Below, piece by piece: positions 501 through 48,720 of a stretch of DNA of 64,000 nucleotides. The position numbers were made by a program, and so were the translations under genes. Every line of letters begins with the position of its first letter. The stretch's first letter is position 1. Below the pieces are notes generated by a model that had not been told where the DNA came from, did not search any database, and worked only from the letters and a program-made list of their open reading frames with translations. The stretch is from Oikopleura dioica (lineage: Eukaryota > Animalia > Chordata), in contig OU015566.1 of NCBI GenBank assembly GCA_907165135.1, positions 4,650,001 through 4,714,000 of the forward strand, in the 5' to 3' direction.

Positions 501-1790
501 TTACAGAACTTCCTTTTCGACAGTGCCATGCTCATCGATCGTTATTTTAACTGAATGGCACGACCACATGACCAAAGTTTGAGCTTCCGTAGTTGGTTCT
601 TTGAAATCAAGGACGAGATTCATCCAACCTTGAGTTTCTTCTGTTCCAGAAAACTCGTGAGCAAATATGGACGATTTCTTGAATTGCTCAAGGGATAAGG
701 TGTTTGGTGAAGTCGACGAGACAAGCTTGTCCATGACATCCATCAGTCGAAAATATGGCCAAATCGGAAGTTGGTTAGTTATTCGCTAAAATAGAATTTT
801 TAATAAAATTCAAAAAATTCTTTCTACCATTGGATATCCAAGGCAAGACTGTCCATTTAATGTGAGATTGATGTTTTGCAAGTCTTGATGGAATCCAAAT
901 GCTGTCGTTTCCTTATCAATAGCACCCTGGAAGGATTTCGTATTAGTAAGCCCGAAAAAAAGAACCGCGGGTGTATTCCCTCCTTTGATATTGTGGAGAG
1001 TCAGATTCCCAGTTTTCTCAGGAATGTCTCTAGTTGAAACGGTGATTTCTTGATATTTGTACGAGATAGGCTTTGATTTTATTCGTGTAAAATAGTTTCG
1101 GATCGACGGGCTCGATACATATTCACAAACAGCATAGCAATCCTTTATCTCAAGAGGCTTGCCCTTATGGGTGGCTTGTTCAGGGGTCGAACCGATGTAA
1201 ACGGTAGAAAACTCTGATCGTAGACGGTTGAATTTAAGTTTCATTGTTGTGTTTAGTGGCAGAGGTTTATTATCCAAGCAAAATCCATTACTCGGAAAGA
1301 AAACAAGCTCATATACGTAGTGATCTCCGTCGCGAAAGCATTGCGGTCGACGAATCTGTTTGAGAACCTCTTTATCAGGTTGCGTCAAGTAGTCATAGAC
1401 TTCATGATCATAATAACCCTCAATCTGATAAGCTGATGAGACGTAGTCGCGGTTAAAGTTTCCGAATTTTGTCATGTAATCAGCAAGAAAATATTCGCAG
1501 CTAAATAAGAATTAATTTCGTCAGTCTCTTTCACGACAGCCTTACGTTGTTTTTGAGCTCGAAATGAGTTGGGAATTAATTTCAACTTCCATGACTCCAA
1601 ATTGCTTAGCGGCAAATCCATTACTTGGTATGTAATCTTCATGTAAAGATACAGACATATGAATCGCAATTTTATTTTTTAGGAGAAACAAATTCGGGTC
1701 ACTTTCAAATTCAAAAGTAAGAATTTCCGAAGACTGAAGATCTTTCGGAAAATGTTTCTTTAAAATGCGTTGGTCGTAAGCTTCATCCAT
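501..1790 (-). CDS. Polinton major capsid protein (double jelly-roll type), 3 exons, 400 aa: join(1790..1546,1500..828,785..501)
   Basis: ORFs 1542-1865, 810-1475 and 501-743 fuse in frame after removing GT-AG introns 1545..1501 (45 nt, phase 2) and 827..786 (42 nt, phase 0). Motifs LTFEFESDPNLFL, PLPLNTTMKLKFNR, PAVLFFGL, NINLTLNG and VKITIDEHGTV resemble Polinton PY/MCP. Confidence 0.85.
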
Positions 1791-1824: not shown

Positions 1825-2244
1825 TCACCAAATTTTGTTGAGCTCAGAAAAAAGAATTTCGTCATTAACAGAAAGTTTGCGAGAAAATTTAGAAAGTGTT
1901 GCAGAAAAAGAATGAGATTGACGGTACAGAATAAAGAAGCATGAGTACAGCCCGCAGAGAAAAGATTTGGTTGGCTGTATTTTACGAATTTTTCGAATGG
2001 GCTTGGATGAGAGATATGATTTGATACTGTCAGGATAATTTCTGAGGTTGAGACTGTCGTAAACTTCGATCAAATTTTCGTCTTCTCGGATAGCGAGCCA
2101 GTGTGTTCCTTTTTGAGTTGACTTATCTGTGTTTAAAACAAAAAATGAAGGAAAGGAAGAGCACTTAGGGATCTCGTCACTTGGAAAAGATCCGATAAAA
2201 GTTTCGACACGTTGAAGACGTTTCACAATGAGATACTCACTCAT
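1825..2244 (-). CDS. Adenain-like cysteine (maturation) protease
   Basis: LNTD..GTHWLA (His), YDSL (Asp), IQ....FLCGLY (Gln/Cys). Probable start MSEYL at 2244 overlaps the upstream stop (ATGA). Confidence 0.9.
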   Translation of the reverse strand: MSEYLIVKRLQRVETFIGSFPSDEIPKCSSFPSFFVLNTDKSTQKGTHWLAIREDENLIEVYDSLNLRNYPDSIKSYLSSKPIRKIRKIQPTKSFLCGLYSCFFILYRQSHSFSATLSKFSRKLSVNDEILFSELNKIW

Positions 2245-2441
2245 CGTCTTCTCCTTTTGGATCGCTTCCTTGATTTTTTCGAACCGCCTATTTTTCGTGG
2301 GTTCCTTTTTTTCTTTGTTGATTTCTTGATTCCGGTTGACATTTTTGGAGACCATTTTCGCTTTTTTTTTCCCTCACCACTTTGTTGAGAAGGACACCAG
2401 ATTTTGCTTCTCGATTGAAGCGCTTTATTGATCTTCGCCAT
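2241..2441 (-). CDS. Small Lys/Arg-rich protein, 66 aa; candidate DNA-condensing core protein
   Basis: Fills the penton-protease gap exactly, overlapping both neighbours. Ends KKSRKRSKRRRR and contains IGG. Confidence 0.55.
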   Translation of the reverse strand: MAKINKALQSRSKIWCPSQQSGEGKKKRKWSPKMSTGIKKSTKKKRNPRKIGGSKKSRKRSKRRRR

Positions 2442-2802
2442 TCGATTCTCTGATAAGAATTTGGAGAAAAATATCAGAAAATTTAATTTGTCCTTTCTTC
2501 ACTTTGACTTCGAAGTAAGTGGCACCGAGTTCATTTGTTCGCAGAGGAAAGAAGAGTACTTTATAGCCTGAGGACATTCTGAATCCTTTATTGCCAGTGA
2601 GTGTCATCAACAAAGTGTACGGGTTCGGACCAGGCATTGCTTTGACTCCGTTGTAGACAAGTTCTATGAGCGAATAATTGAGTTGCTCTGTTTCAACGGT
2701 TGCACATAAGGAAGTGACCGCTATTTCATAGTTCTTGTTTTCATCTAACACGATATCCGGAAGTTTTATCTTCGGTTCAATTGCGTAAAGACTCAAAATC
2801 AT
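2425..2802 (-). CDS. Putative minor capsid protein (penton, single jelly-roll), 125 aa
   Basis: Beta-rich; N-terminal NYEIAVTSL and C-terminal FFPL...IKF..IFLQILIRE resemble Polinton PX/penton. Genomic position is consistent. Confidence 0.6.
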   Translation of the reverse strand: MILSLYAIEPKIKLPDIVLDENKNYEIAVTSLCATVETEQLNYSLIELVYNGVKAMPGPNPYTLLMTLTGNKGFRMSSGYKVLFFPLRTNELGATYFEVKVKKGQIKFSDIFLQILIRESNGEDQ

Positions 2803-3925
2803 CAGCGATCTTGTTTAATTCGTAATAGTACTTGATTCCTTCTTGTCGATTTCCTTCCAAGTCGGCAATTTTATACCAGACAACTCCTGCTATTTGCCTC
2901 ACGTCAATTATTTTGTAAAGATCTGATGACCAGTTTTGTTTGTAACCTTTATCGAAAATCTCTTTGTTGATTTTAATTCTGACAATATTTCCGATTTTAA
3001 GTCTCGGAGCTGCAACGTCGTCGATGTCCGGATAAAGACTGGCGAAAACTTCCTTGCGGTTTGACTCGTTAACATCCTCAGGCGCCATTTTTATCGACGA
3101 ATGGGGCGTTGAATTGTATCCCTTGATGATTTTTTTCAGGTAATCTATCCATCGTTTCGTCTTGTTTTTCCTCAGACATTTTTCAATTCGCCCCTTTATT
3201 GTCCGAATGGCACGCTCAGCAATGGATGCTTTTAGTTTTGTTTTGATACTATAATGATGTATTCCGTATCGCTCCAAGATCGACTTGACCTTGTCATTGT
3301 AAAATTCTTTTCCTTCGTCAGTTATCAAAGAGTTTGGCCAAGTGTCGAAATCTTGAAATATATCATTTAGACAGTTTGCGGTGGTAGTTTTTTCTTTATT
3401 TTTCATCGGTCTTGCCCAGATATATTTTGTGAAACAGTCGATGACCAATAGAATGAAGGAATTACCTCCGTTATTAAAGGAGTCCTTCTGATATTCAATA
3501 AGATCAGCCATAAAAATCTGCTTGGGATATTTGACAATAATTCTCCGCCGAGGAAATTTCTTTTTGACGATGCGTCTATGAGTACTGTGTATTTTATTCT
3601 GACGAAGAAAATCCGCTATTTTCGCTGTAAAAGCTGGAGGATTTTCGACGTTTTCGTACAATTCTTTCACCGTCAGAGTCTGACTCTTCTGAAGTGGAGG
3701 AGTCGGTTTCTGAGGAAGAACTTTCGTATTTTCTACGTTTTTTTGACTTTCTTTTTGTTCGACGTTTTTTCTTCCTTGATTTCGAGATTCTTTTTGTTCT
3801 CTTTCTTTGTTTTTCGATCGGTTCTTCAGCCGAGCTGCTCGAGTCATCGGTAAAGCTGTCGATTTCTTCCGAGGGTTCTCTCTTGCGAGATTTTTCTTGG
3901 CAATTTTGTTTGATCTGGTCTTCAT
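2777..3925 (-). CDS. Retroviral-like (rve) integrase of Polinton type; start probably at ATG 3925
   Basis: DDE triad IFMADL / LITDEGKEF / KASIAERAIRTIK. C-terminal IGNIVRI..FDKGY..NWS. No chromodomain seen. Confidence 0.92.
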   Translation of the reverse strand: MKTRSNKIAKKNLARENPRKKSTALPMTRAARLKNRSKNKEREQKESRNQGRKNVEQKESQKNVENTKVLPQKPTPPLQKSQTLTVKELYENVENPPAFTAKIADFLRQNKIHSTHRRIVKKKFPRRRIIVKYPKQIFMADLIEYQKDSFNNGGNSFILLVIDCFTKYIWARPMKNKEKTTTANCLNDIFQDFDTWPNSLITDEGKEFYNDKVKSILERYGIHHYSIKTKLKASIAERAIRTIKGRIEKCLRKNKTKRWIDYLKKIIKGYNSTPHSSIKMAPEDVNESNRKEVFASLYPDIDDVAAPRLKIGNIVRIKINKEIFDKGYKQNWSSDLYKIIDVRQIAGVVWYKIADLEGNRQEGIKYYYELNKIADDFESLRN

Positions 3926-4675
3926 TTTTAAGTTCGCTTCAAATTTACGCGATTTCTCTTCAATTTCGAAAAATCGCGAAAAATCAGTTTCGTTAACAAC
4001 GTAACCTTTCATTCCGTCGACTGAGAAAACAACTGGATACTCGCTAAATATATCGGTATAAAACCGATAGCTCGAGGCAAAAGCTCGTGGAGACTGGTCG
4101 ATTAAAAAGTACGGATATTGTTCATATTGGGTGTCAGATTCTGCCGCAGCAAGCGCTTTAGAAAGACCAAGTTGCTGGCAGACACGTTTGTTGATTCTTG
4201 TGTCGACATAATTTCTCAGTAAAATCGTGATATTACACTGATTTCGTATATCACGGGTAAATTTACCAGATGTAAAATTATTCTGTGTCATTATCATCAC
4301 GTTCAGCATATGTTTTCCGCTAGTGACTCTGAAGAGATGATCCACAGCGGTACTTTCAACTGCTCCATCGTAATTATCATCAATAACAATTGTCGTATCT
4401 TCATCCATATCCTCGATATCTTCCTGAGAAGGAATGCCAATTCGATAAGACACTGGGATCTTTAAAGTGTTCTCCCAATTCACGGGACGCTGCTTTATAA
4501 AACATGGATAGTAATAGATGACTCGCTTTGCTTTTCGTTCAAATAAATCGGTTCTCTCAAGAATTTTTCCGGCAAGATACGTCTTTCCGCTTCCGGATGC
4601 GCCACTTAGCAAAATTCTGTATGGATAAGCGAATTTTGTTTTTGGGATTATGTCTCCATTTACAGACAAACTCAT
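3594..4675 (-). CDS. A32/FtsK-like packaging ATPase, copy 1. Appears fused to the integrase in the ORF track because of a 5-A run at 3925-3929
   Basis: Walker A GASGSGKT, Walker B IVIDD, MIMTQN..RDIRNQ motif. The basic/Ser-acidic tail frame ends at TAA 3596-3594. Confidence 0.85.
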
Positions 4676-4754
4676 TTTTGTTATAATTTTAGAGAACTCA
4701 CTTGAATTTATACTTTTTAAAAATGACCTAAGGCATTTTTTGAAATTCGTTTAT

Positions 4755-5324
4755 CTTGAAATATATCATTTAGACAGTTTGCGGTGGTAGTTTTTTCTTT
4801 ATTTTTCATCGGTCTTGCCCAGATATATTTTGTGAAACAGTCGATGACCAATAGAATGAAGGAATTACCTCCGTTATTAAAGGAGTCCTTCTGATATTCA
4901 ATAAGATCAGCCATAAAAATCTGCTTGGGATATTTGACAATAATTCTCCGCCGAGGAAATTTCTTTTGACGATGCGTCTATGAGTACTGTGTATTTTATT
5001 CTGACGAAGAAAATCCGCTATTTTCGCTGTAAAAGCTGGAGGATTTTCGACGTTTTCGTACAATTCTTTCACCGTCAGAGTCTGACTCTTCTGAAGTGGA
5101 GGAGTCGGTTTCTGAGGAAGAACTTTCGTATTTTCTACGTTTTTGACTTTCTTTTTGTTCGACGTTTTTCTTCCTTGATTTCGAGATTCTTTTTGTTCTC
5201 TTTCTTTGTTTTTCGATCGGTTCTTCAGCCGAGCTGCTCGAGTCATCGGTAAAGCTGTCGATTTCTTCCGAGGGTTCTCTCTTGCGAGATTTTTCTTGGC
5301 AATTTTGTTTGATCTGGTCTTCAT
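4755..5324 (-). pseudogene. Truncated, frameshifted integrase N-terminus in the duplicate copy
   Basis: Matches the copy-1 integrase up to CLNDIFQD and then meets the duplication junction. Homopolymer frameshifts are present. Confidence 0.85.
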
Positions 5325-6075
5325 TTTTTAAGTTCGCTTCAAATTTACGCGATTTCTCTTCAATTTCGAAAAATCGCGAAAAATCAGTTTCGTTAACAAC
5401 GTAACCTTTCATTCCGTCGACTGAGAAAACAACTGGATACTCGCTAAATATATCGGTATAAAACCGATAGCTCGAGGCAAAAGCTCGTGGAGACTGGTCG
5501 ATTAAAAAGTACGGATATTGTTCATATTGGGTGTCAGATTCTGCCGCAGCAAGCGCTTTAGAAAGACCAAGTTGCTGGCAGACACGTTTGTTGATTCTTG
5601 TGTCGACATAATTTCTCAGTAAAATCGTGATATTACACTGATTTCGTATATCACGGGTAAATTTACCAGATGTAAAATTATTCTGTGTCATTATCATCAC
5701 GTTCAGCATATGTTTTCCGCTAGTGACTCTGAAGAGATGATCCACAGCGGTACTTTCAACTGCTCCATCGTAATTATCATCAATAACAATTGTCGTATCT
5801 TCATCCATATCCTCGATATCTTCCTGAGAAGGAATGCCAATTCGATAAGACACTGGGATCTTTAAAGTGTTCTCCCAATTCACGGGACGCTGCTTTATAA
5901 AACATGGATAGTAATAGATGACTCGCTTTGCTTTTCGTTCAAATAAATCGGTTCTCTCAAGAATTTTTCCGGCAAGATACGTCTTTCCGCTTCCGGATGC
6001 GCCACTTAGCAAAATTCTGTATGGATAAGCGAATTTTGTTTTTGGGATTATGTCTCCATTTACAGACAAACTCAT
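4996..6075 (-). CDS. Packaging ATPase, copy 2, reading into a basic/Ser-acidic tail
   Basis: Same first ~250 aa as copy 1. A 6-A run at 5324-5329 puts it in the tail frame. Confidence 0.8.
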   Translation of the reverse strand: MSLSVNGDIIPKTKFAYPYRILLSGASGSGKTYLAGKILERTDLFERKAKRVIYYYPCFIKQRPVNWENTLKIPVSYRIGIPSQEDIEDMDEDTTIVIDDNYDGAVESTAVDHLFRVTSGKHMLNVMIMTQNNFTSGKFTRDIRNQCNITILLRNYVDTRINKRVCQQLGLSKALAAAESDTQYEQYPYFLIDQSPRAFASSYRFYTDIFSEYPVVFSVDGMKGYVVNETDFSRFFEIEEKSRKFEANLKNEDQIKQNCQEKSRKREPSEEIDSFTDDSSSSAEEPIEKQRKRTKRISKSRKKNVEQKESQKRRKYESSSSETDSSTSEESDSDGERIVRKRRKSSSFYSENSGFSSSE

Positions 6076-6347
6076 TTTTGTTATAATTTTAGAGAACTCA
6101 CTTGAATTTATACTTTTTAAAAATGACCTAAGGCATTTTTTTTTTGAAATTCGTTTATTAAATCCCTGATTTGCAGTGGGTTTCAGCGAAGTTAAGCATC
6201 ATTTTAAGAACAGTATATCGTCAATAATTTTTGAATAAATTGTCTTCGTTTGATGATATCGGTATCGTTTCTTGTGATGATTACGCCTTCATTTTATGAT
6301 TTCCTCATTTTGTGAAGAGTGATCCCCGCCGCCAAGCTAAGTAAGAG

Positions 6348-6460: not shown

Positions 6461-6767
6461 TCAGCTTAAAACGCTGGCAACAAGAATGTCCATCACCAAC
6501 TTTTGAAATGAATCAAAATATATTTGAATTTTTTCTTTTTCCAAATCCTTAAAATGAGTCAATAGGGACTTACAGTGATCGACGAATACTAGCAGTTTTT
6601 GTGAAATAATGCGATAAAATGACAACCAGAGAAGATAAAAATACTGCAAAGAAAACGGCCTTTTTATAAAATGCTGCCTGATATTTATTAATTGTCATTG
6701 TCATTGGCTTTAATAAAACGAAAAGAGAATTGAGTTGGTAGTTTATTTTTTGACAGTTGATTGGCAC
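6461..6767 (-). CDS. Two small overlapping hydrophobic ORFs (6570-6767 and 6461-6649), possible viral membrane proteins
   Basis: AVFFAVFLSSLVVILSHYF is transmembrane-like. Both ORFs are co-oriented and overlap neighbours like other genes of the element. No family recognised. Confidence 0.3.
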
Positions 6768-7180
6768 AATGGACAGTTATTTTTTTGTTCGAGCCATCTT
6801 TTTATACAGGAAAGGTGAAATTCATGTTGGCAGGAGGGGATCGTCCCAATAAGAGTGTTTTCCATTTTCTCCAAGCAGATTGGACAGGGATCGGTATGTC
6901 TTGCGATACTTTGTGACAGAGCGGCGCAGCGCTGCTCAACTTCTTCAGAAGGAGCGCGTCTTGGCCAAATTAACGGAGGAACGATTCGCCCGTCTGGGGT
7001 GATGTAGATTCCAGAACGTCGTCTCGGATCTCCTGGTGAAGGAAAAGTTGACGCAATGAATTGATCTTTTCCAAATACAAAGTTCCGCTCGACAAACTCG
7101 CTTCCACATCTGATGCAACAATATGGACGGCAGATAAAATTGCTGTCGGACCCGCATGCAATACATGAATAAAGCGGCAT
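6743..7180 (-). CDS. RING-H2 E3 ubiquitin ligase with N-terminal zinc ribbon (RNF115/RNF126-like architecture), intronless, 145 aa
   Basis: CIAC..CCIRCGSEFVE, then CPIC..C.HEFH..CI..W..CPLC. Confidence 0.85.
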   Translation of the reverse strand: MPLYSCIACGSDSNFICRPYCCIRCGSEFVERNFVFGKDQFIASTFPSPGDPRRRSGIYITPDGRIVPPLIWPRRAPSEEVEQRCAALSQSIARHTDPCPICLEKMENTLIGTIPSCQHEFHLSCIKRWLEQKNNCPLCQSTVKK

Positions 7181-7331: not shown

Positions 7332-8043
7332 TTACTGAAAGAAACCAGCGAAGAGATGTCTGTTCTCTCTTATGTCCACACCATGGTAGCGGAATCGTAT
7401 GTTGCAAGTAACACATTTTTTCTTCAGCGTTTTTGTTTTCTCCACGCAAGATGCGCAATAGTAATGGCGGCATGGCATCTATTAAAGGGTTAATCATAAG
7501 CGTATTTTTTTGACGAACAGGTAATAGTCAAAGAAGGCAAAATGACTCTATTTTTAATATAAGAAGAAAACATAGTTATCATTTCGCCGTCTTTGAAAAT
7601 CACAGCTTCAATTTTATCTCTCATAGTATGAATAACCCTACCTCTAAAGTCGGACCTTTCTCGAGACAAATAAGACAGGTATTTTTCTCTTCGTCGGTTA
7701 TTTCCTGTTCTCGAGCCATTCGCAAATCGGCTTTCCGAATAATTGAGCCGGAAGGTTCAGCCCAATGATATTCTAATGGTCCCCAGTCGCGAAAAGCTCT
7801 GTGAAAATCGCGTATGTAGACTTTTTTCCTTGTAACGAGAGCATGTTTTAGAAGTTGCTCCCATTCCAAAGGGGAGAAGGGTCGATAGAAGTGATCTCCA
7901 CACTTGTCGCAGCAATCTTCAACATCGAGAATGGGACCTTCCGCGGGGAATCTTTTTGAAAGAAGTCGAGTCTCTGTATCGCAAGCCATGCAGTAGATAT
8001 GAGCATGGCGAGTTGTCACAACATATTTTTCTTTAAGAGCCAT
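7332..8043 (-). CDS. RING-HC E3 ligase with N-terminal zinc ribbon, 2 exons, 182 aa: join(8043..7642,7478..7332)
   Basis: CLIC in exon 1. After the GT-AG intron 7641..7479, exon 2 reads MPCRHYYCASC...KCVTC and completes C3HC4 in frame. Confidence 0.85.
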
Positions 8044-8194
8044 TTTTTTCGAACTGATATTTTTTTGACAGTGAGAGTACTTATATATCTTCAGCGAGGT
8101 TCTCAAGCGTAAATTTTTATAGAGCAGAACATCCGACCTAATTCTACAACCTTAATCCAATTTCTTGTCAAGAGATAAAAACGACCAGCCAGTC

Positions 8195-8314
8195 TGTCTT
8201 CCGGAAGTGCGGTAATCCTACTGATAAGCCGAAAGTGTGAAATTGATCAGTCAGTACTTCCGGTATAGTACTTCCGGTGACCTTTCCGGAAACATGGGCT
8301 TTTTTATTACTACT
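8195..8314 (-). repeat. Putative Polinton terminal inverted repeat end
   Basis: AGTAGT terminus. Short direct repeats AGTACTTCCGGT and palindromes CTTCCGGAAG and TTTCCGGAAA. The partner TIR is outside the window. Confidence 0.65.
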
Positions 8315-8447
8315 AAGGTTCAATTTTTGGCGGCTTTTTTGTTAAAAAATGACAAATTTCCGTCTCGAAAAAGCTCTTATTACAGATTTTCAGTCAAAAA
8401 TTGGCAGTTTTTCGGAGATTTTTGAGCAACTTCGAGGATTTTCGAAC

Positions 8448-9020
8448 CCTTTTCCTAACAATTACAGCCGTAACCAGCGAATAAATCGTCCAAATCACCA
8501 GAAATCGTTTAAAACCCGCGCTAATAGCCCAAATGACTGGAATTATCAGCATTCCAAGAAGAGTAGCGGCGTTATAACTTCTTTTGTGGCGCTTCTGCCA
8601 GACGAATAGAATAATTTGAGCGGCAAAAAGGGTTCCAAAAAGCACAAGCACCATTTTCGTATGCATATCTTCATGACCTTAGGAATTGTGTTTGGGTAAG
8701 ATTGTCGATTTTGACAGGAAAAAAGCGTTTTCGATGCAACTTAAATGGTCTTGCTCCCTATTTTTGTGTCAAAAATACCTATGAAAAGTGATTTTTGACA
8801 GAAAAAATTAATTCTTATCATTTGAACATCTTTTGTTCGCTAATTTTCGCTCAATATAAAGGAATTTTCCCCTGAAAATCGCATTTTCGAGTGAAACTTG
8901 ACAGAAAAGGTAAACTCCTTTGAAAAATTTGAATAATTATAACTAACCTTCATGTTCTTTCAAATATTTTTTCTGCTCTTCTATTCTTTTCATTCTTTCT
9001 TCTACCGTTTCTATTCCCAT
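8448..9020 (-). CDS. RNF121: RNF121/RNF175-like gene, exons 1-2 only: join(9020..8948,8677..8448)
   Basis: MGIETVEE..KEHE-GHEDMHTKMVLVLFGTLFAAQ..WQKRHKRSYN..RFLVIW matches the RNF121 N-terminal TM region. The RING-coding exons are not in the window. Confidence 0.85.
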
Positions 9021-9090
9021 TTTCTTCAAATTTCTCTCTCTTCAATAAATAATTCGTCTTTTTCAAATTTTCCTTTTTCTCGCTGAAAAA

Positions 9091-9132
9091 TGACTCATCG
9101 CGCGCTCCACCGCAGCTGGCACCGCTGAGTCA
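9091..9132. promoter_or_regulatory. Inverted pair of AP-1-type sites upstream of RNF121
   Basis: TGACTCA 9091-9097 and TGAGTCA 9126-9132 flank a GC-rich spacer. Confidence 0.3.
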
Positions 9133-9254
9133 TCGTTTTCTCAAGTGATTCACTTTTCGGAAAGAAAAAATTGTATTTTAACCCTATTCTAGAGTTCACG
9201 ATTTCAACCAATGAGAAGTCAAAGAAACGGAATTGATTAAAAGTTAAAAATTAA

Positions 9255-9947
9255 GGGTAGGGTCCCCGTACAGGCCCAAAGCAGCGAGACTCTCCTCCGA
9301 ACCTATCAATGCTGGGAAGGCGTGTAATGGCTCAAATGAAATTTCAATCTTAGATCTTCTGATTGACACGAGCTTTTTTTGAAATTCCAAGAGAAAATTC
9401 ACGTGCGGTTCGCTCAAAGTTGTCGTCTCACCCAAAAATCGCGAAAATAGCCAATATTCAGGGCGACTCTCCTCCAAAGTGAGCAATGAAAACCCCCTCG
9501 ACTCTTTTGTAGGGTAAAGTTTGGACCCTAATCTTAAAAATGACACGAGCTTTTTTCGATTGGTCAAAATTTTCAATGTTAAAAATTTTAAAGTACGAAG
9601 GTACCCATTTTCCGTCCCTCTGACTCCGTGAATTGCCTTGCGGGCATAGCCCAAAAGCCGCCGTTCTCATCTCAAATAGATGTCCTGAACGTGGGCTTTC
9701 CAAAATATGACACCCTAACATATGACACCCTAACATAACGACTAAAAATTGTAAAAATTTTAATTAATATTTCCGCCTTTTAGCCAAAATGCACTAATTT
9801 TCGCCATTTTCGATTGCAATTTGTGCGAAAATGGGTTGAGATAGAGATAATACTCATAGGGAGTTTTTTGCTCAGAATTTCATGGAGATTCAGAAAAAGT
9901 GGTCAAAAACCGATTCTGAGACTTGACCCTGTACGGGGACCCTACCC
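9255..9947. mobile_element. TTAA-flanked MITE (Kolobok-like)
   Basis: Perfect 20-bp TIR GGGTAGGGTCCCCGTACAGG with TTAA on both sides. Confidence 0.85.
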
Positions 9948-11001
9948 TTAAAGTCCGACAAAATTTTTGCGCTAATCAAAAACCAACATTCAGGCTGAAT
10001 TATTCAGCCAATCTCTCAATCAGGGGTCTAAATTCGCAGTGCGAATTCGCATTATTGCGAAGCGATTGCGATAGCTTTTTGTTTGCACTTTCAATTTCCT
10101 TTAGCTTCTTCTGCTTTTGGCTAATTCCTGAAAATAAAATGTATAAAGTTTACTTCCAAAGAAAATGGTCCAAGGATCAAACAAAGAAAGCATCGAAAGA
10201 AAAGCCCTTTTTCGCCTCAATTTCTTTAATCTACCTGTTATTGCTAAAACTGGTAACAAGTTTCTTTCGAATGTGTAGGGCTTGATGATCTTGAGCATGC
10301 ATCAATTTATGAATAACATCCTTCAAATCTACCCCAGCCGTCCATAAAAACCCTTTGACTCCGGAAATCACTGCTTTAATTAAAATCAATTTGAGCTTTA
10401 AGCTCTCATTTTCTTTTGAAAGGTCCAAAACAACTCCCGAAACTCATTCTCTCCTATTGTAGAATCTTTATAATCTAAAGAGTTTTTATCCTAGCAGGGT
10501 TCGAAATGTAGCAATATATTGCTGCTACATGCTACACGTGCTACATCCCTCAAAAAAAGTCCCTGCTACATGCTACATGTGCTACACCCCCCAAGATAAA
10601 GGAGCAAGCAGATGCGCACGCGGCTTGGCGAAAACAGAAAGGAATTGAGTTTCGCTTCGCAGAAGAGCAGCATCTCTTGGCGCAGAAAGATCAAAAGACC
10701 AAGTCTGAAGAGGCAAAACGGAAGAAAGCAGCGTAAGTCCACGATTTCTCAGTCTTTTTCACCGATTTTAAAGGACAAAAGCAGCGAATATCGCGCGTCA
10801 AGAAGCAAGAAGCCACCCAAAAGTGCACTTGGACCTTCGATCGGCCGAGGACAGATGCTCCAGCAAGCTCGCCAGAGAAACAACCCACTGGACAATTTGG
10901 CGTCCGGGAAGCTCCAGCTCCTGAGCTGAGAAAAAAACAGGAAGAACAAGCCTGGAATCTAGAAAATCACGTCCACAAGGAGCAGCGCAAGAAGGACAAA
11001 T

Positions 11002-11610
<609 letters not shown>

Positions 11611-28510: not shown

Positions 28511-28686
28511 TATAATGAAATCAAATGTCTTACTAGGCTAAGAATTGAAACTTTTGCAAAATTTGGTCACTTTTTGCCGAAGGACCCCGGACAACCCCTT
28601 TTGCCGCAAGACAATCTACTGGTAGACCAACATATAAATAAATAAAAATCAATCACCGTCAATTCAGTGATTGATCATTGGGCCAC

Positions 28687-28968
28687 GCCGACCCCAAGGG
28701 GAGGCCACGCCCGTTCATTCTTTTCAATCATATTCAGGGCGAAGCCGACCCGAAGGGGAGACCACGGCCGTTCATTCTGCTCAATCAGAGTCAGGGCGAA
28801 GCCGACCCGAAGGGGAGACCACGGCCGTTCATTCTGTTCAATCAGAGTCAGGGCGAAGCCGACCCGAAGGGGAGGCCAAGCCCCGTTCCTTGATTTTTAA
28901 TTTAAGGAGCTTGACGGCCCTTCGGGCCGTCTCAGCCCCGTTCCTTGATTTTTAATTTAAGGGGCTTG
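28687..28968. repeat. 57-bp tandem (about 3.5 units), then about 1.7 reverse-oriented units of the 55-bp hairpin satellite
   Basis: GCCGACCCGAAGGGGAGACCACGGCCGTTC units, then GACGGCCCTTCGGGCCGTCTCAGCCCCGTTCC. Confidence 0.8.
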
Positions 28969-31619
28969 AGATCGGCGTTGGACTCTGAGGTGATCAATCT
29001 CAGTTATGTCCCCAACCCCACCCACACCCATTCAAGGTTTAAATACAAATTATTCAAGTTTTTCTTTTATTATGGTTTTTATTTAGTTTTTATTTGCGGA
29101 TTTATCATCTTGCTTCGACTTTTTCGACTCGAAAAATCATTTTTGAGCTTTTAAAATGATAGTCTAAGTTTTCTCAGGCTTAATTTTGCAAAAATGAAAA
29201 ATCGATTTTTCGACCCTATACCCTCAATTTTTCGAAAATTTTTTTGATTTTTTCTTGATTAGGACCTCAGAAATATGTCCACAAAATTTCATCACCCAGG
29301 TCAAGTGCAAAAAGTCCATTTTTCCACTGGCGCAACCCCACTGATAAGACTTTCAGGAGTGATAAAGAAGGGTTCCTGCGTTTTGATTAAGTTAATTTTT
29401 TAAGAATGGCCCATTTACGTTGATTTGATTTATCTGCGAAAATTTCAAAATCAGGGTCGAAAAAATTTTTCGAAAAAGTTACTTGAGCCAAGATCTTGGC
29501 GAGCGGCGGCACTTCAGCACACGAGCGCCACCCATCCATCGCGGCGCGGCGCGCACACCGGCGATTTTTCGCCATTTTCTCGACTCTAGAACTCGGGTTC
29601 TAGTAGAGATTTTTAAATTCTGATTTCAGATTTGAAATCAGTGGAATGAATAAGGGGGGGACTCTAAAAATGGTTATTTGTTAAGCATTTTAAAATTTTA
29701 AAATTATTTGGGTGCGAACCCTAATCGTGCTTTTTTACAGATTTTTCGAACTCTGTCCGCCATTAACAGACACGGATAAAGGTCTGGAGTTGTCAGGATT
29801 TCACGGACAAATACGGACAAGTACGGATTTTGTCCGGATCGTGACAAAAGTCCGGGCTAGTCTGTCAAAAAGTTGAGAAATACAATAACGAAAGATCGTT
29901 TTTTCGGGGCAAACTTTAGAGCTCTTTAAAAGATTTTTGACTTTGACGGATTATGAGAATTAAAAAATTGCGTCTAACCAATCGAGGAAATTTTCAAATA
30001 AGGAGGGGATCCGGCAAGTCAAATTTTGTCTACTTTTAAGGACATTGAAAAGTCGATAAAATTTGCAATATTTACGCTAAGTACAATTTACATGTATTTT
30101 CCCGATTTTGAAGTGCCGAAATTTTGGACATAGATGTTTTCTATGTGGTACTATAAATTATAGTCTTTAATTTGATGTATTCTAGTCTATAATACATATA
30201 AGATATTAATTTATAAAATTATGATCTAGGAAACACTAGGCGTCATAAGGCGGTTCATTCTGGAAACTCAAATGTAGCACCGTGAAGGGTTTGTCAATAA
30301 AAAGTGAAGATATAGTTGTCAAACCTACTGAAGACTACAGTAAGAAACTAAATATACAGATTTTTCCTCTTTTTAAGGGGTTTTTAAGGGGTTTTAGTGG
30401 GGCACTTTTAAAAGATAATGTTTCACTTTTGTGGACATTTGTTCAGCCGAGAAAATTTAAAAGGAAGAAATAGAGTGTTTTTTCAAAAATAAAGATGTTT
30501 TTGATAAGAAATCAATGGCTTATGCAGTTTATTTGACCAAAAATGGTAAAAGGGGCAGAAAAAGGCGTTTTGATGATGAAATTTTCCCATTTTTGAAGAA
30601 AATTTTATCGAAGAAAAATTTTAAGGCCCTACGGCGGGACAATTTTTTGAAGACTCTAGCCCACTTTTGTAGACATTTTTATGAAAATTTGCGACAAAAA
30701 ATGTCCACAATAGAGGAAAATAACTGAACTCGATATTCGATGCAATTTTGAAACTGAAAAGCGGCGGAACTGCGGATTTTACAAAAATAATTCCAATTTT
30801 TTGTGAGCTGATTCTCAAAATTTTTCGAAATTTGACCAAAAACTCCCAAATTGCCCACTCCCAAATTGACCACCCCTACTGTAATATTAAATTTTAAATA
30901 AACAAATCGAATTGCAAATAAGTCGATTTTTAAAAATTACCTTGCCATCTCCGCGTCGGAGCAATCTCCTAGGTAGTTAACAGGCATTTCTCTATCTGAA
31001 TAAAAATATAATTTAACCGTTATTTTCATAAAATTTTGTTACAGTCTGTCTTCGGATAAATTACAGTTTTCTCTCAATTTTTTCAAAATTTTGCGGCAGG
31101 CGGAAAACACCGGATTTCGAAGATTTCTATCGCGTGCGCGCGATCTAAAAATGAATCAGAAGCCTTTCGAAATTTTGTGACAGTCTTCCTTGATTTCCAA
31201 TTTTGTCAAGTCGAAGAGCCTGTGTGCGCACCGAGCCTGTTTGGTAGTATACGTTTTGGAGTTATTTACGTATTTTTGAGCGAAAAATATTATTGAAAAA
31301 TAATATTGAAAAAATTGGTAATAGATTACCAGTTTTTGGTTATTCATTACCAAAAATCTTTGTTAATTTAGACGAGCGTCCCCGTTCAGAACCGACCCAA
31401 TCCAGAAACAACGACGGCACTGAAAATGTCACGAATGTCACGAAATTGACCTATTCATTAGTGACATCGTTAGTAAGAGCGGCCGAAAAATTTGAGTTTT
31501 GCGTGCAGTAAGAGTTGGGCCCCGCCAACACAATGAGTTATCTATCAAAAAATGCACGACGTTGCCCCTCGTGAAGCTACAGTCAAATTTAGCTAAAATT
31601 CCTTCTTGCCATTCCCTTT

Positions 31620-32881: not shown

Positions 32882-35800
32882 TTATCTTAGCCAGCTTCTG
32901 ACAGTTTCTTCTGGAAATTCAACGTCATTTTCGCGGAAGAATTCGATATACTCTCTGATGTATGAGTTGATCATCTCGATTTCGTCTGAAAACAAATTCA
33001 ACCCCATTGCCAATAAGATTAGTTAATTCATCAAGAGGTTCTTTTTGACTGTTTTGTCCAAAATAGATCGAGAAATCTTACCTGGTTTGTAGATTTCAAA
33101 GTCGAGTTCAACTTTTTTCTTTTAAATTTGTCCAAATTATCGTTTTTGATGCAATTTAGTCGCTGATCGATGTCTTCCACTTCGAATTTTCCATGCGGAG
33201 CCGCCTCGTTTTCCAAGAAACTGTAAACTTCCCTCATTTGCGCTTCTTTCTCTGTTTTCAGCAAATCGTACCAGAGAAAATGAAAGTTTTTCTTGCTGTT
33301 GACGGCCAGATGGACCGCGTCTTTGTAGTACTGTCGCCACATTTCCGCGGTGTTTTGAATGTATCGTCGCCATTTTAGCGATTTGAAGAGCGCTGGGTCG
33401 ATGGTGCCAGTGTGCGCGCCCTGGCCGTCGCCGGTTTCTTTTTCCGCCATGATTCGGTTGAAATTTGCTTTGATGGTGTCGTAGGGGTTGCGGATGACGA
33501 GGACGACGGCGTGGGCTTTTCGGATGTGTCCTCGAGCGTGGGACTTGATTCCTGAAAAATGATTTCTTTGGCGATAAGGGTATGTATGATTGATTTATGA
33601 AAACAAAGTGTGGGATGACTAAGTTCGTGGGGACTAGGTTCGTGGGACTAGGTTCGTGGGTGGCTGGCTGGAAAACGTGGTTCGTGGGACTAGGTTCGTG
33701 AGTTTTTGATTTTATATGTATATTTTTATTTATAATGATTAAGTGTTATTTATATGTATATATTTATTTATATATATTTATATATATGTATTGTAATTAT
33801 ATGATCATATAATATAATATTGCTATCTAAATATAGGTTCGATGGTTTTTGATTGGTTAGAATTTTTATTCTATAAGGAAAAATATGTGCGACTAGGTTC
33901 GTGGGACAAGGTTCGTGGGTTTTTAATTGGTTATTATTTTTATTCTATAAGGAGAAATTATGTGCGACTAGGTTCGTGGGACTAGGTTCGTGGGTTTTGA
34001 AATTTTTAATAAGGAAAAGTGGGGTGCGACTAGGTTCGTGAGACTAGGTTCGTGGGTTTTGAAATTTTTATAAGGAAAAGGGAGGTGCGACTAGGTTCGT
34101 GGGACTAGGTTCGTGGCTTTTAAAAATTTTTTTATTTAAGGAAAATGGGGTGCGACTAGGTTCGTGGGACTAGGTTCGTGGGTTTCTATTTTTAAAGGAC
34201 GTGCGACTAAGTTCGTGAGGCTTAGTTCGTGAGACTAAGTTCGTGGCGACTAAGTTCGTGAGACTAAGTTCGTGAAATTTAAAATTTGAGAAATTTAAAT
34301 TTATTGAGTTCTCAAGCCTTAAATACTTTAAGAAAAAGTTAGCTTGCTAAATAATTCCGTTATAGTTATCACCAACTCTTCTAAGGCAACCATTGTTATT
34401 CAGCGCTAACATAGAAATTCAGTTAAAGAGCCTAGCGGCTTATTTTGGGGGTGGGGGTGGGAAAGTCATTTTTACCATTCAACTTTACCCAATTTTACAA
34501 TCCACGAACCTAGTCCCACGAACCTAGTCGCACTCAACTGTTCCTTATAAAAAAATTTCAAAACCCACGAACCTAGTCCCACGAACCTAGTCTCACGAAC
34601 CTAGTCTTCACGAACCTAATCTTCACGAACCTAGTCCCACGAACCTAGTCTTCACGAACCTAGTCTTCACGAACCTAGTCCCACGAACCTAGTCGCACCC
34701 CCATTTTCCTTATAAAAAAATTTCCAAACCCACGAAACTAGTCCCACGAACCTAGTCGCACTCAATTGTTTCTTATAAAAAAATTTCAAAACCCACGAAC
34801 CAAGTCCCACGAACCTAGTCGCACTCAATTGTTCCTTATAAAAAAATTTATAATTTTTATAATACTTATAATACTTATAGAAAAATCTCTAATTTCAAAA
34901 CCCACGAACCTAGCACCCCTACGAACCTAGTCCCACGAACCTAGTCGCACCACATTGTTCCTTATAGAAAGGAAACCATACCCCATCTTGCATACTTTGG
35001 CATAACCACCTACGAACCTAGTCCCACGAACCTAGTCCCCACGAACTTAGTCATCAATCCCAAAACAAAGCTAACAACTTTTTGGAGCACTTGAATCATC
35101 ATGTTTAATTGACCTCTCCGATTGGATTCCCGTTTGGAAGTCTTTGTATTCACTAAATATTCGTACAACCAAGAGCTATTGACTATTGCGTTTTTCTCGA
35201 AAATATTATCATTCCCGAATGAGCACAAAAAAGGAGGATTTTAAAAAGGAAAACAAACATGCGCGTCTTTTCTTTTCTGTTTTTGAGCTCAATTTTCGAA
35301 AGGCAGAAAAAATAAAAGCATCAGTATGGAAGAAATTTCGTCAACCCTTCTCTTTCCCGACTCATTCTTCGGGTCAAAAATTGGAAAACGCTTGATCCAG
35401 GAATAGTTATCTAGGCCCTAAGTTTGAGGTTCTTAAAGACCAGGTTATACAATAACGTAGCGTGCTTACGCCATCATAATTATTATCGTAACAGTTCTCT
35501 TCTTGTTTCATTTAGATAATTTATTTTCACTTCACGCTCACATTTTCGGCCTTACACAAAAGTCTCGCTTTACCTAAAACTCTGCCGGACTCAGGAGAAA
35601 AATGCTCTCCCGGAAAAGGCGATTGTTCGTACAGATCGTCATTATCGAGTTCGTCTTGTATCTCGTGATAGACTCCTCCCGCGTAGTAGCCCGTCAGCGA
35701 CTGAAAAAGCTGCCTCGTCCAGGTGTTTCCAGATCCTTGCACCGAAAGAATCAGAATCCAGTTGAACTGGCCCGGTTCTCCGATTTTTACGTCGTTTTTG

Positions 35801-43101: not shown

Positions 43102-46100
43102 ATGAAGGTAATTTTTCCTTTTTGCGGATATTTTTGATGATTTTTGTGTCTCAAAAAGCTAGAGAATATTATTCAAAGAGATAAAGAGGAATTTCATTTG
43201 CAATTTATAGGAGATAATTATCATAAATTATCTTTTATAATAAGAAAACAGCTAGAAATTCTAATAGATCCTTAAGATTTTTTGTTTTATTTTATTTCAA
43301 AAATATTTTCAGCTTCTGGCGACCATCAGCTCCGCCCTTGCCGGGTCGCCCGGTATTGACTTTTACCTCAACGACGGTGACTACTGGCCGATTGGTGCAT
43401 GCAGTTCTGATAAGGCCTGTTCCGCCTGGAGAATCAGCACCAAGCCTGGGTGGGAAAAAACTTGGGCCGCAAACTTGAAGTGTGATCTCAGCGTCGAAAA
43501 GTGCACTTGCGCCGATGGTTGGGTCGATCTCGACGGAAAGCCAGAAAATGGCTGCGAATCAAAGGCCGGTGAATCTCTTCTCGGCGGTATGTGCTATTAC
43601 AGTAGCTGTTTTCTAGAAGATAAGTGCAATGAGTTCCATCCTGGGCTCGTCTGCTCTAAGATAACTGGCTGCTGCGAGTGTGAAGGAGAAGAACCCCTTC
43701 GACCAACAATTTTTGGTCAAAATAAGGGTTGTCTGGACAAGAATTGCCCAGAAGGAGCTGTTTGGGATAAGGAAATAAAATGGTGCCTCTGCGAAGATGG
43801 AAGACTTCCCCAGTACAACTTGCCTGACCTCGATGATAGTGTCTGTTGTCCACCAGGACTTTGGGGAAATCCATGTGGTTGCTCGAACGGAGTGATTCCG
43901 GACCTTACTGCCGAAGATCCTTGCGACCCTGGGTGTCCGGAGAATCTGTATTGGGATCCAAGCACGAAACGTTGCGAGTGTCCTGGGAATCTTGTCTACG
44001 ATCCAAGTACTGGACAATGCGAATGCCCGGAAGGTATGCTACCCGGAGTAACAGGAAATTGTTTCTGCCCGACAGGAACTTACGAGGTAACTGGCGTTGA
44101 GCCGACTAAGTGCTGCCCTATCGGAACCTGGTACAACCCCCAAACAGAAAGATGCGAAGAAAATGATCATGACAACTGCCCCCCAAATATGTACACAGTA
44201 CCAAATGTGATTCCACACCAGTGCTGTCCTGATGACAGTGTTTGGGATCCCGTGACACAAGAGTGTGACTGTCCAGAAGGACATTATCTAACAACCGATC
44301 CTTTGTATGTTTCTATTGAAAGAAACGTTTGCTGTCCTGATGGAACTGTTTACATTCCTTCGTTGGATAGTTGTGATTGTCCAAATGGTTCCTATGCGGT
44401 TCCTGACGAAAGTCCGACACAGTGTTGTCCAGACGGGTCTCAATGGCAAGCCAACACGCGTACTTGCGAATGTCCTGAGGGAACCTATCTAACAACTGAT
44501 GATTACGACCGAGAAGTTTGCTGTCCGGAAGGAACTAAGTGGATTCCACACTTGGACCGATGCGACTGCCCTCCTGGTACTTACGCTGCCAGCATCAATC
44601 CTATTCGATGCTGCCCAGACGGTTACAATTGGAATGAAGATTTCAATGACTGTGTTCCAGATGACGGGCTTTCTCATTGCCCAGAAGGAACTTATGCTGT
44701 TGCTGGAATCACCCCACTCCAATGCTGTCCCGAGGGAACCGAATGGGATCATGATAAAAACATGTGTGTCGATCCATCTGATCCAACTGACCCGACTGGA
44801 TCCCCTTGCCCAGAAGGAACCTACCCAGTTGCTGGAACAAATCCTGTTGAATGCTGTCCTGAGGGAAGCCATTGGGATTTTGAGAAGAAAACCTGCCTCG
44901 ATCCAACTGATCCAGTTGACTGTCCTCCAGGACATTACCCCGTTGCCGGAACAGACCCTGTCGAGTGTTGCCCTGATGGTACCCACTGGGATTTTGAAAA
45001 GAAAGCCTGCGTTGATCCAGTCGATCCTATTGAGAAATGCCCTGAAGGAACATACCAAATTCTTGGGATTGTCCCTCTTAAATGTTGTAAAATCGGCACT
45101 TTCTGGGATCCTGATCGAGAAATTTGCGGTGATCCTACCGATCCAGTTGATCCAATCGAGGAATGTCCAAAAGGCTTCTATCAAGTTGCTGGAGTAACTC
45201 CTCTTCAATGCTGCCCAGAAGGAACAAAATGGATTCCAGAGCTCAAGCAGTGCATGTGCCCAGACGGATCTGACCCAGTCGCCGGCCAATTCCCTCCATG
45301 CGAAGACCCTGAGCAATGTCCAAAGGGAACCTACCTTGTTGAATTTGTCTTGCCACAAATTGTCTGTTGTCCACTTGGTACCAAATACGTCCCTGATCGT
45401 GACGAATGCCTCTGCCCAGACGGCAATCCAGTCGACGACCTTGGCCTCTGTGTTGACTGTCCAGAAGGAGAATACGCTGTTTCACGATTCCCTGAACTCA
45501 TTTGCTGCCCAGAAGGAACATGGTTCGATAAGGAGATGAAAGAATGCCTCTGTCCTGATAAAACGAAGCCGGACGAGAATGGCGATTGCGTCGATCCTTC
45601 CGATAAATGCTTAAGACCATTAAAATACGATTTTATCACTGGAATGTGCGTTTGCTGGAATGGAGAACCACCAATTGAAGGCGAAGCTACCGTCCCCGTT
45701 GACGAATTTGGCTGTCCACCAAATGACTGCCCTGAAGGTCAGAACGCGTTCTTCGACAAGAAAGGAAACCTCCAATGCTGCCGAGAAGGACTTGTCTACA
45801 ATATCCAAAAAGACACTTGCGTTTGCAAAGACGGAACCCTTCCAACCGCCACTGGCGATTGTGGATCTTGCGAAAAGTGGCAAAACGCATTCTACATCGA
45901 AGATCAGATCATTTGCTGCGGAGTTAATGAATACTACGCTGCTGATCATAAACACTGCATGTGCACTGACGGTACGCATGTAGAAAAATGTCCTTTTCCA
46001 TGCAAAGACAACGAGATTCATGAAGTTGATCCGACTGGAATGACCGCTGGCGAGTGTGTCCCGATGTGCGATGATGGACACGTTTTCAACAAGCTCACTA

Positions 46101-48720
46101 AGACTTGCCACTGCACTGATGGCCGACCAATCGACGAGGGATACCCTGGCGGATGTCCTCCTATTGTCGTCGATTGCAGCAAGTTTTTCGGTGACGAAAT
46201 TCATTTCTTTGGTGATGAGATTCATGGCCAATGGGTTTTTGTCCCATGGGATACAAAAGACGGTCCAGTCTGCTGCCATATCGAAGCTCATTACAATCCT
46301 GAAATTGGCCAATGTGTCTGCAACGACGGATCCAAACCGGATGAACGAGGTTTCTGCGGAAAATCCTGCCCAGAAGAGCTCGTCTTTGCTCCTTATCCAC
46401 CAACTGGAGAGATGGCTTGTCTTTGCCCCGAAACTTTCAAGTTCCCCAACGCCGATGGTGTTTGCATGGACAATCCATGTGAAAAGGGTCTAAACCCATT
46501 CAAGCTTCCTGATGGTTCCGTCGCTTGCTGCCCAGAAGGATCATATTTCGATTACGAGATGAAGTCATGTATTTGCTTCTCTACCAAGCGAGCTCCAGAT
46601 GAAAACGACGAGTGCCCAGAGAAATGCCCAGATGACACTATTCCAGTTATCGATGATGAGACTGGCGATCTCAACTGTGTCGCCGTCGACTGTGCTCCTG
46701 GATTCTACCTTGCTTACAAAGAGATCTGTTGCCGAGAAGACAAGATCTTCGATAAAGAGCGATTCCAGTGCGTCTGCCCACCTGGACTTGCCGATTTCGA
46801 AGGACGATGCCAGGAGAAATGCCCTCTCGGATCCACTTATGACGGAGAAGAATGCGTTTCAAAATGCCCCGAGGGACAGATTTTCCGAGAAGGAGCTTGC
46901 TACTGTGCTCTTGATGGATCTCTTGCTTCTCTAGACAAACCTTGCTGCGAATTCGGACAAAGCTGGGATGCTAAGAAGGGTATTTGCACTTGCGATGGCG
47001 ATCTTTTCTGCGAAAAAGCTTGTCCAAAAGACCGACCGAATTTGTTCATCGACAAGTTTGGCGATCGACAGTGCTGTCCCGAGGATATGGTCTTTGACGT
47101 CATCAACCATGCTTGCATGTGCAGCGGTGGTGTCGACAAGCCAGCGTTCAAGCCTCTTGATGGAAGCTGCAGATGTCCCGATGGCGAGCGACAAATGATG
47201 AACGCCGACATGACTTCTTTCGTCTGCGTTGATGGAGGCTGCCCCAACGGACTTGTCGTTGATGAGATCACCAGCAACTGTGTCTGCCCCAAGGACTCCT
47301 GGCAATTCATCAACTCGATCGGCGTTCCAGTTTGCTGCAAACGAGACCAGAAGTGGTCCGAAGAGCTCCAGGAATGCATCTGCGTCGAAACCAATCTGCC
47401 AGCTCTCGATGATGGAACATGCGAAGATCTTGGCGACGAAAAATGCCCACCTGGATGGACTTTTGTCAAAGAAACCATGCTTTTCAATGATCAGCCTTTT
47501 CGTTGCATGCCAATTTGCCCTGAACCATCGATCGCCTATGTCAAGCCACTTGATTGTTTCAGCGTTGTTAACGCCGCTGAATGTCTTGCTACCGCTGCTG
47601 TTGAGTGCATGTGCAAGGGTGATTACAGATACAACGGAACAGCTGACAACATGATCGACTACATCCTCTACGGAAGCTGCGAGATGGAAGAGTGTCCGCC
47701 AGGCCTTGTCCGATCTGATGACATTTTGACCTTCAACGAATGTACTTGCCCATACAAGTGGCAGAAGCAAATCCAAACGGCTTCCATCCCCCCTCAGATA
47801 AAGTGCACTTGTGATGATCCAAAATACCAGGTCAACGAGGAGACCGGCATGTGCGAGTGTAAACCACAAATTGCTGAATACAGCGTCACCGGATTCGATG
47901 GATCCTGTGATTGCCCACGAAACATGCTTTTCAATGCCGAAAAGGATGTCTGCGAGGAGATCAACACTGGAACTGTGGTTGAGATTGACGAAAACTGCTG
48001 GTACTACGATTTCGAAACTGAAGCTTGCTTGACGAAGGAGGAATTCGAAAACCAGTTTGATGCTAAGCCTACTGAGGTAAACTTTTCGAAGTTGCTTGAA
48101 TGAATCATTCTTTTTAGAACCCCTTCACTCAAAACGACAAGGACTGTCCCGGCTTTGAAGTTGGCTGGAAGGGACTCAAGAGCTCCAAGATCCAGTACAA
48201 GTCTCCAACTGGCTACCTGATCCTCGTAAACATCCTGAACAACCAGGGCAATGTCGATGTCACAGTCGATGATTACATTGGTTTCATCATTTTCAGCAAG
48301 CGATATTGCGGAATCGACTTTATCAAGGAGCTCGACAATGGCAACGTTACCGTCTCTTTCTATGATAAGACGCCTTCTTACGACAGATCAGATGTCTACG
48401 TCCGATTGGACAAGGGCCAGTCGCAGACTGCTATTCAATTCACGTGAGTTCAATAACAATCTGCAATTATTTCATGATTTTTCAGGACGAAACACGATCG
48501 AGACGCAGCTGGCAAACCCGACTACCATTTAGGTAACACGAAGAAGGATCAGTTCCTCCTCCACGTCGAGTTTGATCATGAAATCAACTTCGTCGACACG
48601 CCTGAAAATTGCTTGACCCGATTCAACATCGGTGTCATGAAATCCGAGATGGACTTTACCCAGGACTACACCCACTGCGTCGCCAACTCTCTTTGGTGGA
48701 GCGCTCCAGTTTTCAACTAA
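43102..48720 (+). CDS. Large secreted Cys-rich repeat glycoprotein, 1776 aa, oikosin-like: join(43102..43107,43313..48076,48118..48443,48486..48720)
   Basis: Signal MKLLATISSALA. Dozens of CPxG..CCPxG..W..C.C modules, then a non-repetitive C-terminal domain (FSKRYCG.DF..GNTKKDQ..DYTHC). All introns GT-AG and in frame. The oikosin label is from recall. Confidence 0.85.

Follow-up and report, generated by a model that had tools for sequence, protein, structure and literature searches.

A Polinton/Maverick-type element in intron 2 of Oikopleura dioica RNF121 and the likely capture of the exon 2 splice donor by the element

The stretch of DNA analysed here, hereafter the window, comprises 64,000 nucleotides of Oikopleura dioica contig OU015566.1 (assembly GCA_907165135.1, positions 4,650,001 to 4,714,000), and it was found to contain one end of a Polinton/Maverick-type element inserted into intron 2 of the host gene RNF121, where copies of a 6-bp target flank it on either side and exon 3 follows at a distance of 15 bases. 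The first splice acceptor of this element appears to capture the exon 2 donor, by which the window allele would likely be disabled, and we assign a probability of roughly 0.7 to this reading as a whole. The insertion itself, for which direct observation was joined by the confirmation of three structural predictions, can be regarded as practically certain. The window was compared with assembled contigs from five (X1 to X5) of the 24 listed public runs, of which X1 to X4 belong to one study and X5 to a second one; X1 may be the source of the window. The coordinates of the features are given in Table 1.

Table 1. Features of RNF121, the insertion site and the visible part of the element, in window positions
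Feature	Position	Strand	Support
RNF121 exon 1, coding part	8948..9020	-	tblastn 87% to O. dioica P0001; open frame
RNF121 intron 1, 270 nt, GT-AG	8678..8947	-	joint skips 270 nt in X3 and X4
RNF121 exon 2, phase 2 end	8455..8677	-	80% to P0001; open frame
RNF121 intron 2, 5′ part, GA donor at 8454	8315..8454	-	joint 8455/8088, GA..AG ends, X3
100-nt intron segment absent from one X5 contig	8339..8438		joint 8338/8439, side of 24 letters
6-bp target-site duplication	8315..8320	-	AACCTT (AAGGTT on plus); repeated past second element end in X1, X3, X4
Terminal inverted repeat, at least 90 bp	8225..8314	-	(AGT)2 end at 8314; X3 record 9
Element splice acceptor (AG) joined to RNF121 exon 2 donor	8089..8090	-	X3 record 8, depth 8.89
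Element gene 1, exon 1	7642..8043	-	ORF; ends with first two Cys of RING-like motif
163-nt GT-AG intron in element gene 1	7479..7641	-	joint 7478/7642 in X3 and X4
Element gene 1, exon 2	7332..7478	-	remaining RING-like motif; zf-C3HC4_3 E 5e-5, below curated cut-off
Element RING-H2 gene	6743..7180	-	Pfam zf-RING_2 E 6.6e-12
A32-like packaging ATPase, first copy	4996..6075	-	Atlas 0.99, Pox_A32 clusters
Tandem duplication, 1.4-kb, ATPase and integrase start	3350..6158		five indels of 1-4 nt between the copies, which show no substitutions
Second ATPase copy, continuing into retroviral-type integrase	2777..4675	-	Pfam rve E 2e-11, 44.5 bits vs cut-off 32.6
125-aa ORF	2425..2802	-	no Pfam match
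Probable adenain-like cysteine protease	1825..2355	-	Pfam Peptidase_C5 E 0.0023, below cut-off
Probable major capsid gene, two GT..AG inserts	501..1790	-	Atlas 0.97, DJR-like clusters

The minus strand reads aacctt followed by AGTAGTAATAAAAAAGCCC (8320-8315 and 8314-8296), and this arrangement, described in the initial annotation as the terminus of a Polinton inserted in intron 2 of RNF121, occurs once only in the window. The same annotation had predicted a mirror terminus beyond the left edge, the plus-strand duplication AAGGTT and a 3′ exon of RNF121 on the far side, all of which were recovered in contigs of X1, X3 and X4, so that both junctions and the exon beyond are represented. The second flank, found in three of the four runs compared and lacking in X5, consists of AACCTT, nine bases ending in CAG and the codons K-A-T-R-K-P; its last 13 letters, which the window lacks, match exactly the exon 3 start of the orthologous locus L018. 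This flank is thus the mirror terminus, the 6-bp duplication and RNF121 exon 3. The background frequency of the target-site 6-mer is 3e-4. The near junction is exact in contigs of X1 (8287-8577) and X2 (8287-8534), each including 28 element letters against the 31-letter threshold of the read-contig comparison; these contigs break there because the contig graph forks after 8316, where a common piece (8256-8316) leads either to the window flank or to the second flank. X3 record 9 follows 8225-8316 without mismatch and continues into the far flank. In X1, the depth was 85 at the far junction versus 45 at the near one, an excess to which words common to the exon 3 of the other haplotype could contribute, and no contig of X1 to X5 carried the whole element. 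A second type of end was observed in X1 (record 3, depth 88.6), sharing 8256-8285 and then differing, with its own flank, which probably marks a related element at a different place in that sample. The 19-base terminus was also searched among viral contigs, and its 15 exact matches were attributed to chance, none exceeding 21 bases against the terminus.

Regarding the host gene, RNF121 exons 1 and 2 had been described as intact and the gene as lost thereafter, and this held true: both exons are open and resemble the O. dioica protein P0001, whose residues after 104 had no real tblastn match in the window, where no later RNF121 exon was found. P0001 is 39-49% identical to named RNF121/175 proteins, mostly over 92-100% of its length, and, judged by this full-length similarity, the host gene belongs to the RNF121/RNF175 family. 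RNF121 has been reported in human cells as an E3 ligase of the Golgi that acts in NF-kB signalling (PMC4232610). RNA covers the gene upstream to at least 9280 (X3 record 17, 8946-9280), a point inside the end of a MITE-like element (9251-9951) that has 29-bp inverted ends, lies directly upstream of RNF121 and reaches an X1 depth of 1100-2500 versus ~50 for single-copy DNA. Decay of exon 2 after the insertion was considered and none was seen, since 15 of its 17 variant letters, considered one by one, are synonymous.

The RNA leaves exon 2 at a non-canonical GA donor (8454), as observed in the X3 joint between exon 2 and the element. The donor context of intron 2, AG/GAA at 8456-8452, is the one published for O. 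dioica GA-AG introns (PMC7072748), and the phase 2 GA donor together with the CAG acceptor restores V-R-K-A, as in homologues. The GT at 8447 was rejected as donor, given that it would insert a codon absent from homologues and that the RNA uses 8454. Accordingly, the 134 bp initially given as separating exon 2 and the element have to be corrected to 140 nt from the GA, or 133 nt from that GT. At L018, intron 2 (89-131) is in phase 0 with GT-AG ends, whereas here it is in phase 2 with a GA donor, so that its position differs by 4 bases between the lineages, an apparent case of intron sliding. A gene model starting at exon 3 (P0002) was set aside as support, since a missed GA donor gives the same start.

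The consequences of the insertion for splicing were followed in X3 and X4, which are labelled 'DNA?' yet are RNA-like, with intron 1 skipped and no cover over 8330-8449. The 3′ end of exon 2 is represented in four X3 contigs, of which three proceed to exon 3, all carrying 8472T and 8481G (8472A and 8481A in the window), and the remaining one (record 8, depth 8.89) agrees letter for letter with the window over 8455-8514, is spliced with GA..AG ends to 8088 in the element and, further on, skips the intron at 7479-7641. In X4, both contigs over the exon 2 end go to exon 3 and neither has the window-type exon 2. Transcripts splicing across the element, which the initial annotation had proposed to look for, were therefore not seen in these RNA-like runs (window-type exon 2 joined to exon 3 in none of the four X3 and neither of the two X4 contigs), the window allele being spliced into the element instead in X3. 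After the joint, the frame meets a stop 24 codons past the junction and does not coincide with that of the element ORF starting at 8043, by which an in-frame RNF121-RING fusion is ruled out. RNA also covers the far inverted repeat, the unspliced acceptor and the start of exon 3 (depth 23.7 in X3 and 17.9 in X4), in contigs that carry neither strand nor start; read outwards, this stretch has a single ATG, out of frame with exon 3, and a search for an in-frame start gave none. Altogether, these data point to a likely, though thinly supported, splice trap that truncates RNF121 ahead of its RING, resting on one contig of depth 8.89 in one of the two RNA-like runs; contigs lose rare variants, and a normal splice form of the window allele could have dropped out. 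The contig joining exon 2 to the element differs from the window at seven places within 7642-8029 and may be a mosaic with another element copy.

In the mechanism proposed, the element integrase would have produced the 6-bp duplication, and host transcription would enter the co-oriented element, where the first acceptor would take over the exon 2 donor. The trapped mRNA would encode a product of ~122 aa, corresponding to the membrane part without the RING, and would be a target for decay, while the RNA over the far inverted repeat and exon 3 would represent transcription exiting the element.

It could be argued that the insertion is tolerated, with the element mostly removed as one giant intron, RNF121 normally produced and the chimera representing a minor leak. 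Both the donor and the acceptor are intact, the depth of the chimera (8.89) is below that of the normal joins (21-39), an assembly can lose a parallel path, and the element end together with the duplication forms a TACTAAC-like sequence, a candidate branch motif, just before the acceptor. This explanation is nevertheless unlikely, considering that window-type exon 2 never continued into exon 3 in the contigs counted above, that the far-junction RNA retains the unspliced acceptor in both runs, and that the median intron of this species measures 49 bp (PMC8008620). That the insertion is real and the chimeric contig a library or assembly artefact is improbable: the contig is single, comes from a single run, has two letters fitting both sides of the joint, and X3 also holds a strand-change contig at a nearby hairpin; however, the ends of the joint form a GA..AG pair, the donor phase of which fits exon 3 independently, and the 163-nt GT-AG intron skipped in X4 is skipped in this contig as well. 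Very improbable, finally, is a useful rewiring, in which the host promoter would drive the element RING gene or the RNF121 halves would work as separate proteins. The chimeric RNA does include the entire first exon of the RING-like gene of the element and the far-end RNA does cover exon 3, but the RING ORF does not share the reading frame of RNF121, nor does the sole outward ATG of the inverted repeat share that of exon 3, and the insertion is apparently absent from other haplotypes. Donor capture with likely truncation of RNF121 is the reading favoured here.

The empty-site allele that the initial annotation had suggested looking for has a likely counterpart in X5. Record 24 of this run follows exon 2, lacks the 100-nt segment of the intron listed in Table 1, matches 8338-8315 and has nothing below 8315, the empty site being likely as judged from a match that ends at 8315 on a side of only 24 letters. 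The bin depths of this record are 40.4, equal to 53.8 x 15/20, and 24.2, equal to 53.8 x 9/20. Intron 2 without the element and without these 100 bases would measure 49 nt, the same as the published median O. dioica intron (49 bp; PMC8008620), and the orthologous introns have 43 nt in L018 and 49 nt in L019. Close relatives of the element end are present in X5, one variant of which stops at ACTACT, at a place equivalent to 8314, and a second haplotype of X1 departs from the window sequence at 8439. Since the X5 flank, from another study, is exact to 8315 without the junction, the insertion is likely polymorphic, and we infer that it is also recent; the element family is likely multi-copy. The introns of RNF121 were observed to be strongly haplotype-variable, X1 containing a second version of intron 1 with 191 bases replaced by 204, and intron 2 appearing in three versions.

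The window includes 8.3 kb of the element, which extends beyond its left edge, and all of the element genes are on the minus strand. The packaging ATPase had a weak P-loop match by Pfam alone, and in the Atlas comparison its ten best named matches all belonged to one family or clan, with Pox_A32 on 34-57% of members. The capsid-like protein was placed at 0.97 with clusters in which a DJR-like domain is found on 10% of members and at 0.94 with NCLDV capsid clusters; its predicted fold (pLDDT 34) was unusable. The probable protease matched the PDB cysteine protease S273R with an E of 0.48. The ATPase, the capsid-like protein and the integrase had no relatives among the viral contigs, and no pPolB was found in the 8.3 kb of the element within the window. 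The idea that the RING-H2 gene is a captured RNF121 RING was rejected, the match extending over 33 aa only, at 42% (E 0.01). Polishing errors may account for the five small indels that distinguish the copies of the tandem duplication, and a long X1 contig ending at 6129, exactly 30 bases inside the 1.4-kb repeat, hints that the duplication junction is present in the reads. Two subterminal hairpins were noticed at 8201-8291, the inner of which has an arm longer by 7 bases in an X5 variant; a flip-flop hairpin of the inverted repeat was considered unsupported, that variant involving nothing more than the longer arm. The terminal 125 nt fold weakly (z -1.88).

Introns within the element were also recognized. 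The 163-nt intron of element gene 1 was spliced in both RNA-like runs and separates the two halves of the RING-like motif. In the RNAs over this gene, each piece shows 5-7 mismatches with the window, and other element copies may therefore contribute to these RNAs. The GT..AG inserts of the capsid-like gene, at 1501-1545 (45 nt) and 786-827 (42 nt), contain stops; the 42-nt one is a gap relative to all three O. dioica gene models, as is the 45-nt one relative to both models that cover it. These models may themselves be spliced predictions, and from this alignment both inserts are likely introns. Operon-style trans-splicing occurs in O. dioica, and the acceptor-like TTTAAG/TTTAG sequences that immediately precede the start codons of the RING-H2 (7182) and capsid-like (1795) genes would fit with it.

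Other features were observed in the window. A single ORF of 1504 aa (43589-48103) contains cysteine-containing repeats without a Pfam match, arrays of a 14-15-bp repeat that face each other, together with a 55-56-bp tandem array, occupy 33600-35050 and 51400-52640, and the latter array has an inverted relative at 28680-29030. Host exons at 11175-11486, 33031-33450 and 59518-59985 gave family matches to arginine methyltransferase, sulfotransferase and Frizzled, respectively.

The insertion is of a known class and, taken alone, ordinary, and what is unusual is the presence of spliced genes, together with a probable splice-trap effect. A Polinton insertion is thereby defined to the base in a chordate model; both of its ends are known, it is apparently polymorphic and an empty allele is likely, so that the consequences of a Polinton for a host gene become directly measurable. 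If the trap holds, the allele would be a natural candidate for RNF121 loss of function, and if splicing of the capsid-like introns takes place, surveys based on ORFs would take such elements for degraded ones and overlook them. A broader and tentative proposal, to which we would give somewhat less than even odds, is that Oikopleura harbours a still-mobile lineage of intron-bearing Polintons, capsid gene included, that depends on the spliceosome of the host. Because the first gene of such elements would open with a splice acceptor, a co-oriented insertion would act as a natural gene trap that splits the host gene, linking the host promoter to the RING ligase gene and the transcription of the element to the 3′ exons of the host.

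The element works like a Polinton and very likely is one, no pPolB having been seen in its visible 8.3 kb. Its ends are of the (AGT)2 ... (ACT)2 type, at 8314 and at the second end in X1, X3 and X4; AACCTT stands on both sides, in agreement with duplications of 5-8 bp, usually 6; and a retroviral-like integrase above the Pfam cut-off is accompanied by an A32-like packaging ATPase. The inverted repeat is identical over at least 90 bp in X3 record 9, versus a Polinton/Maverick range of 100-1500 bp, and the 8.3 kb are the visible part only of an element class ranging from 13 to 25 kb. Maverick ends have been reported as (AGT)2//(ACT)2 or of the (AG)3 type, with a 6-bp duplication (PMC8097293). 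Vertebrate Mavericks resemble the element in their (AGT)2//(ACT)2 ends, perfect 6-bp duplication, integrase, ATPase and probable protease and capsid genes; however, intact ones are described as intronless (PMC8097293), whereas the element has one RNA-confirmed intron in an accessory gene and two likely ones in the capsid-like gene, besides two RING-type accessory genes beside the terminus. Nematode and general Polintons share the inverted repeat, the 5-8-bp duplication and the core gene set, the repeat being known here only as at least 90 bp (PMC10748475).

Within O. dioica, the element can be compared with the other Polinton-like gene models P0017-P0019, nameless in databases, whose capsid-like proteins are 45-72% identical and whose integrase is 71% identical to those of the element. 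A 'MAV' class is mentioned in the legend of a transposable element figure for this species (PMC5240408); in the portions of the Oikopleura literature on Maverick/Polinton that were accessible, supplements aside, this element is not described, and the repeat libraries in the supplements may already list its family. Introns in Polinton-like elements have a parallel in the dinoflagellate maverick-polinton-like proviruses, which are reported to carry introners (PMC11957031); in contrast with these, the host here is an animal and the splicing of one intron was seen in RNA. Splice capture of host transcripts, in which a splice site of the element is joined to a host exon, has been described for DNA transposons in general (PMC9341512). 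Unlike the fusion proteins of DNA transposons, the junction between RNF121 and this element is out of frame, uses a GA donor and would lead to truncation.
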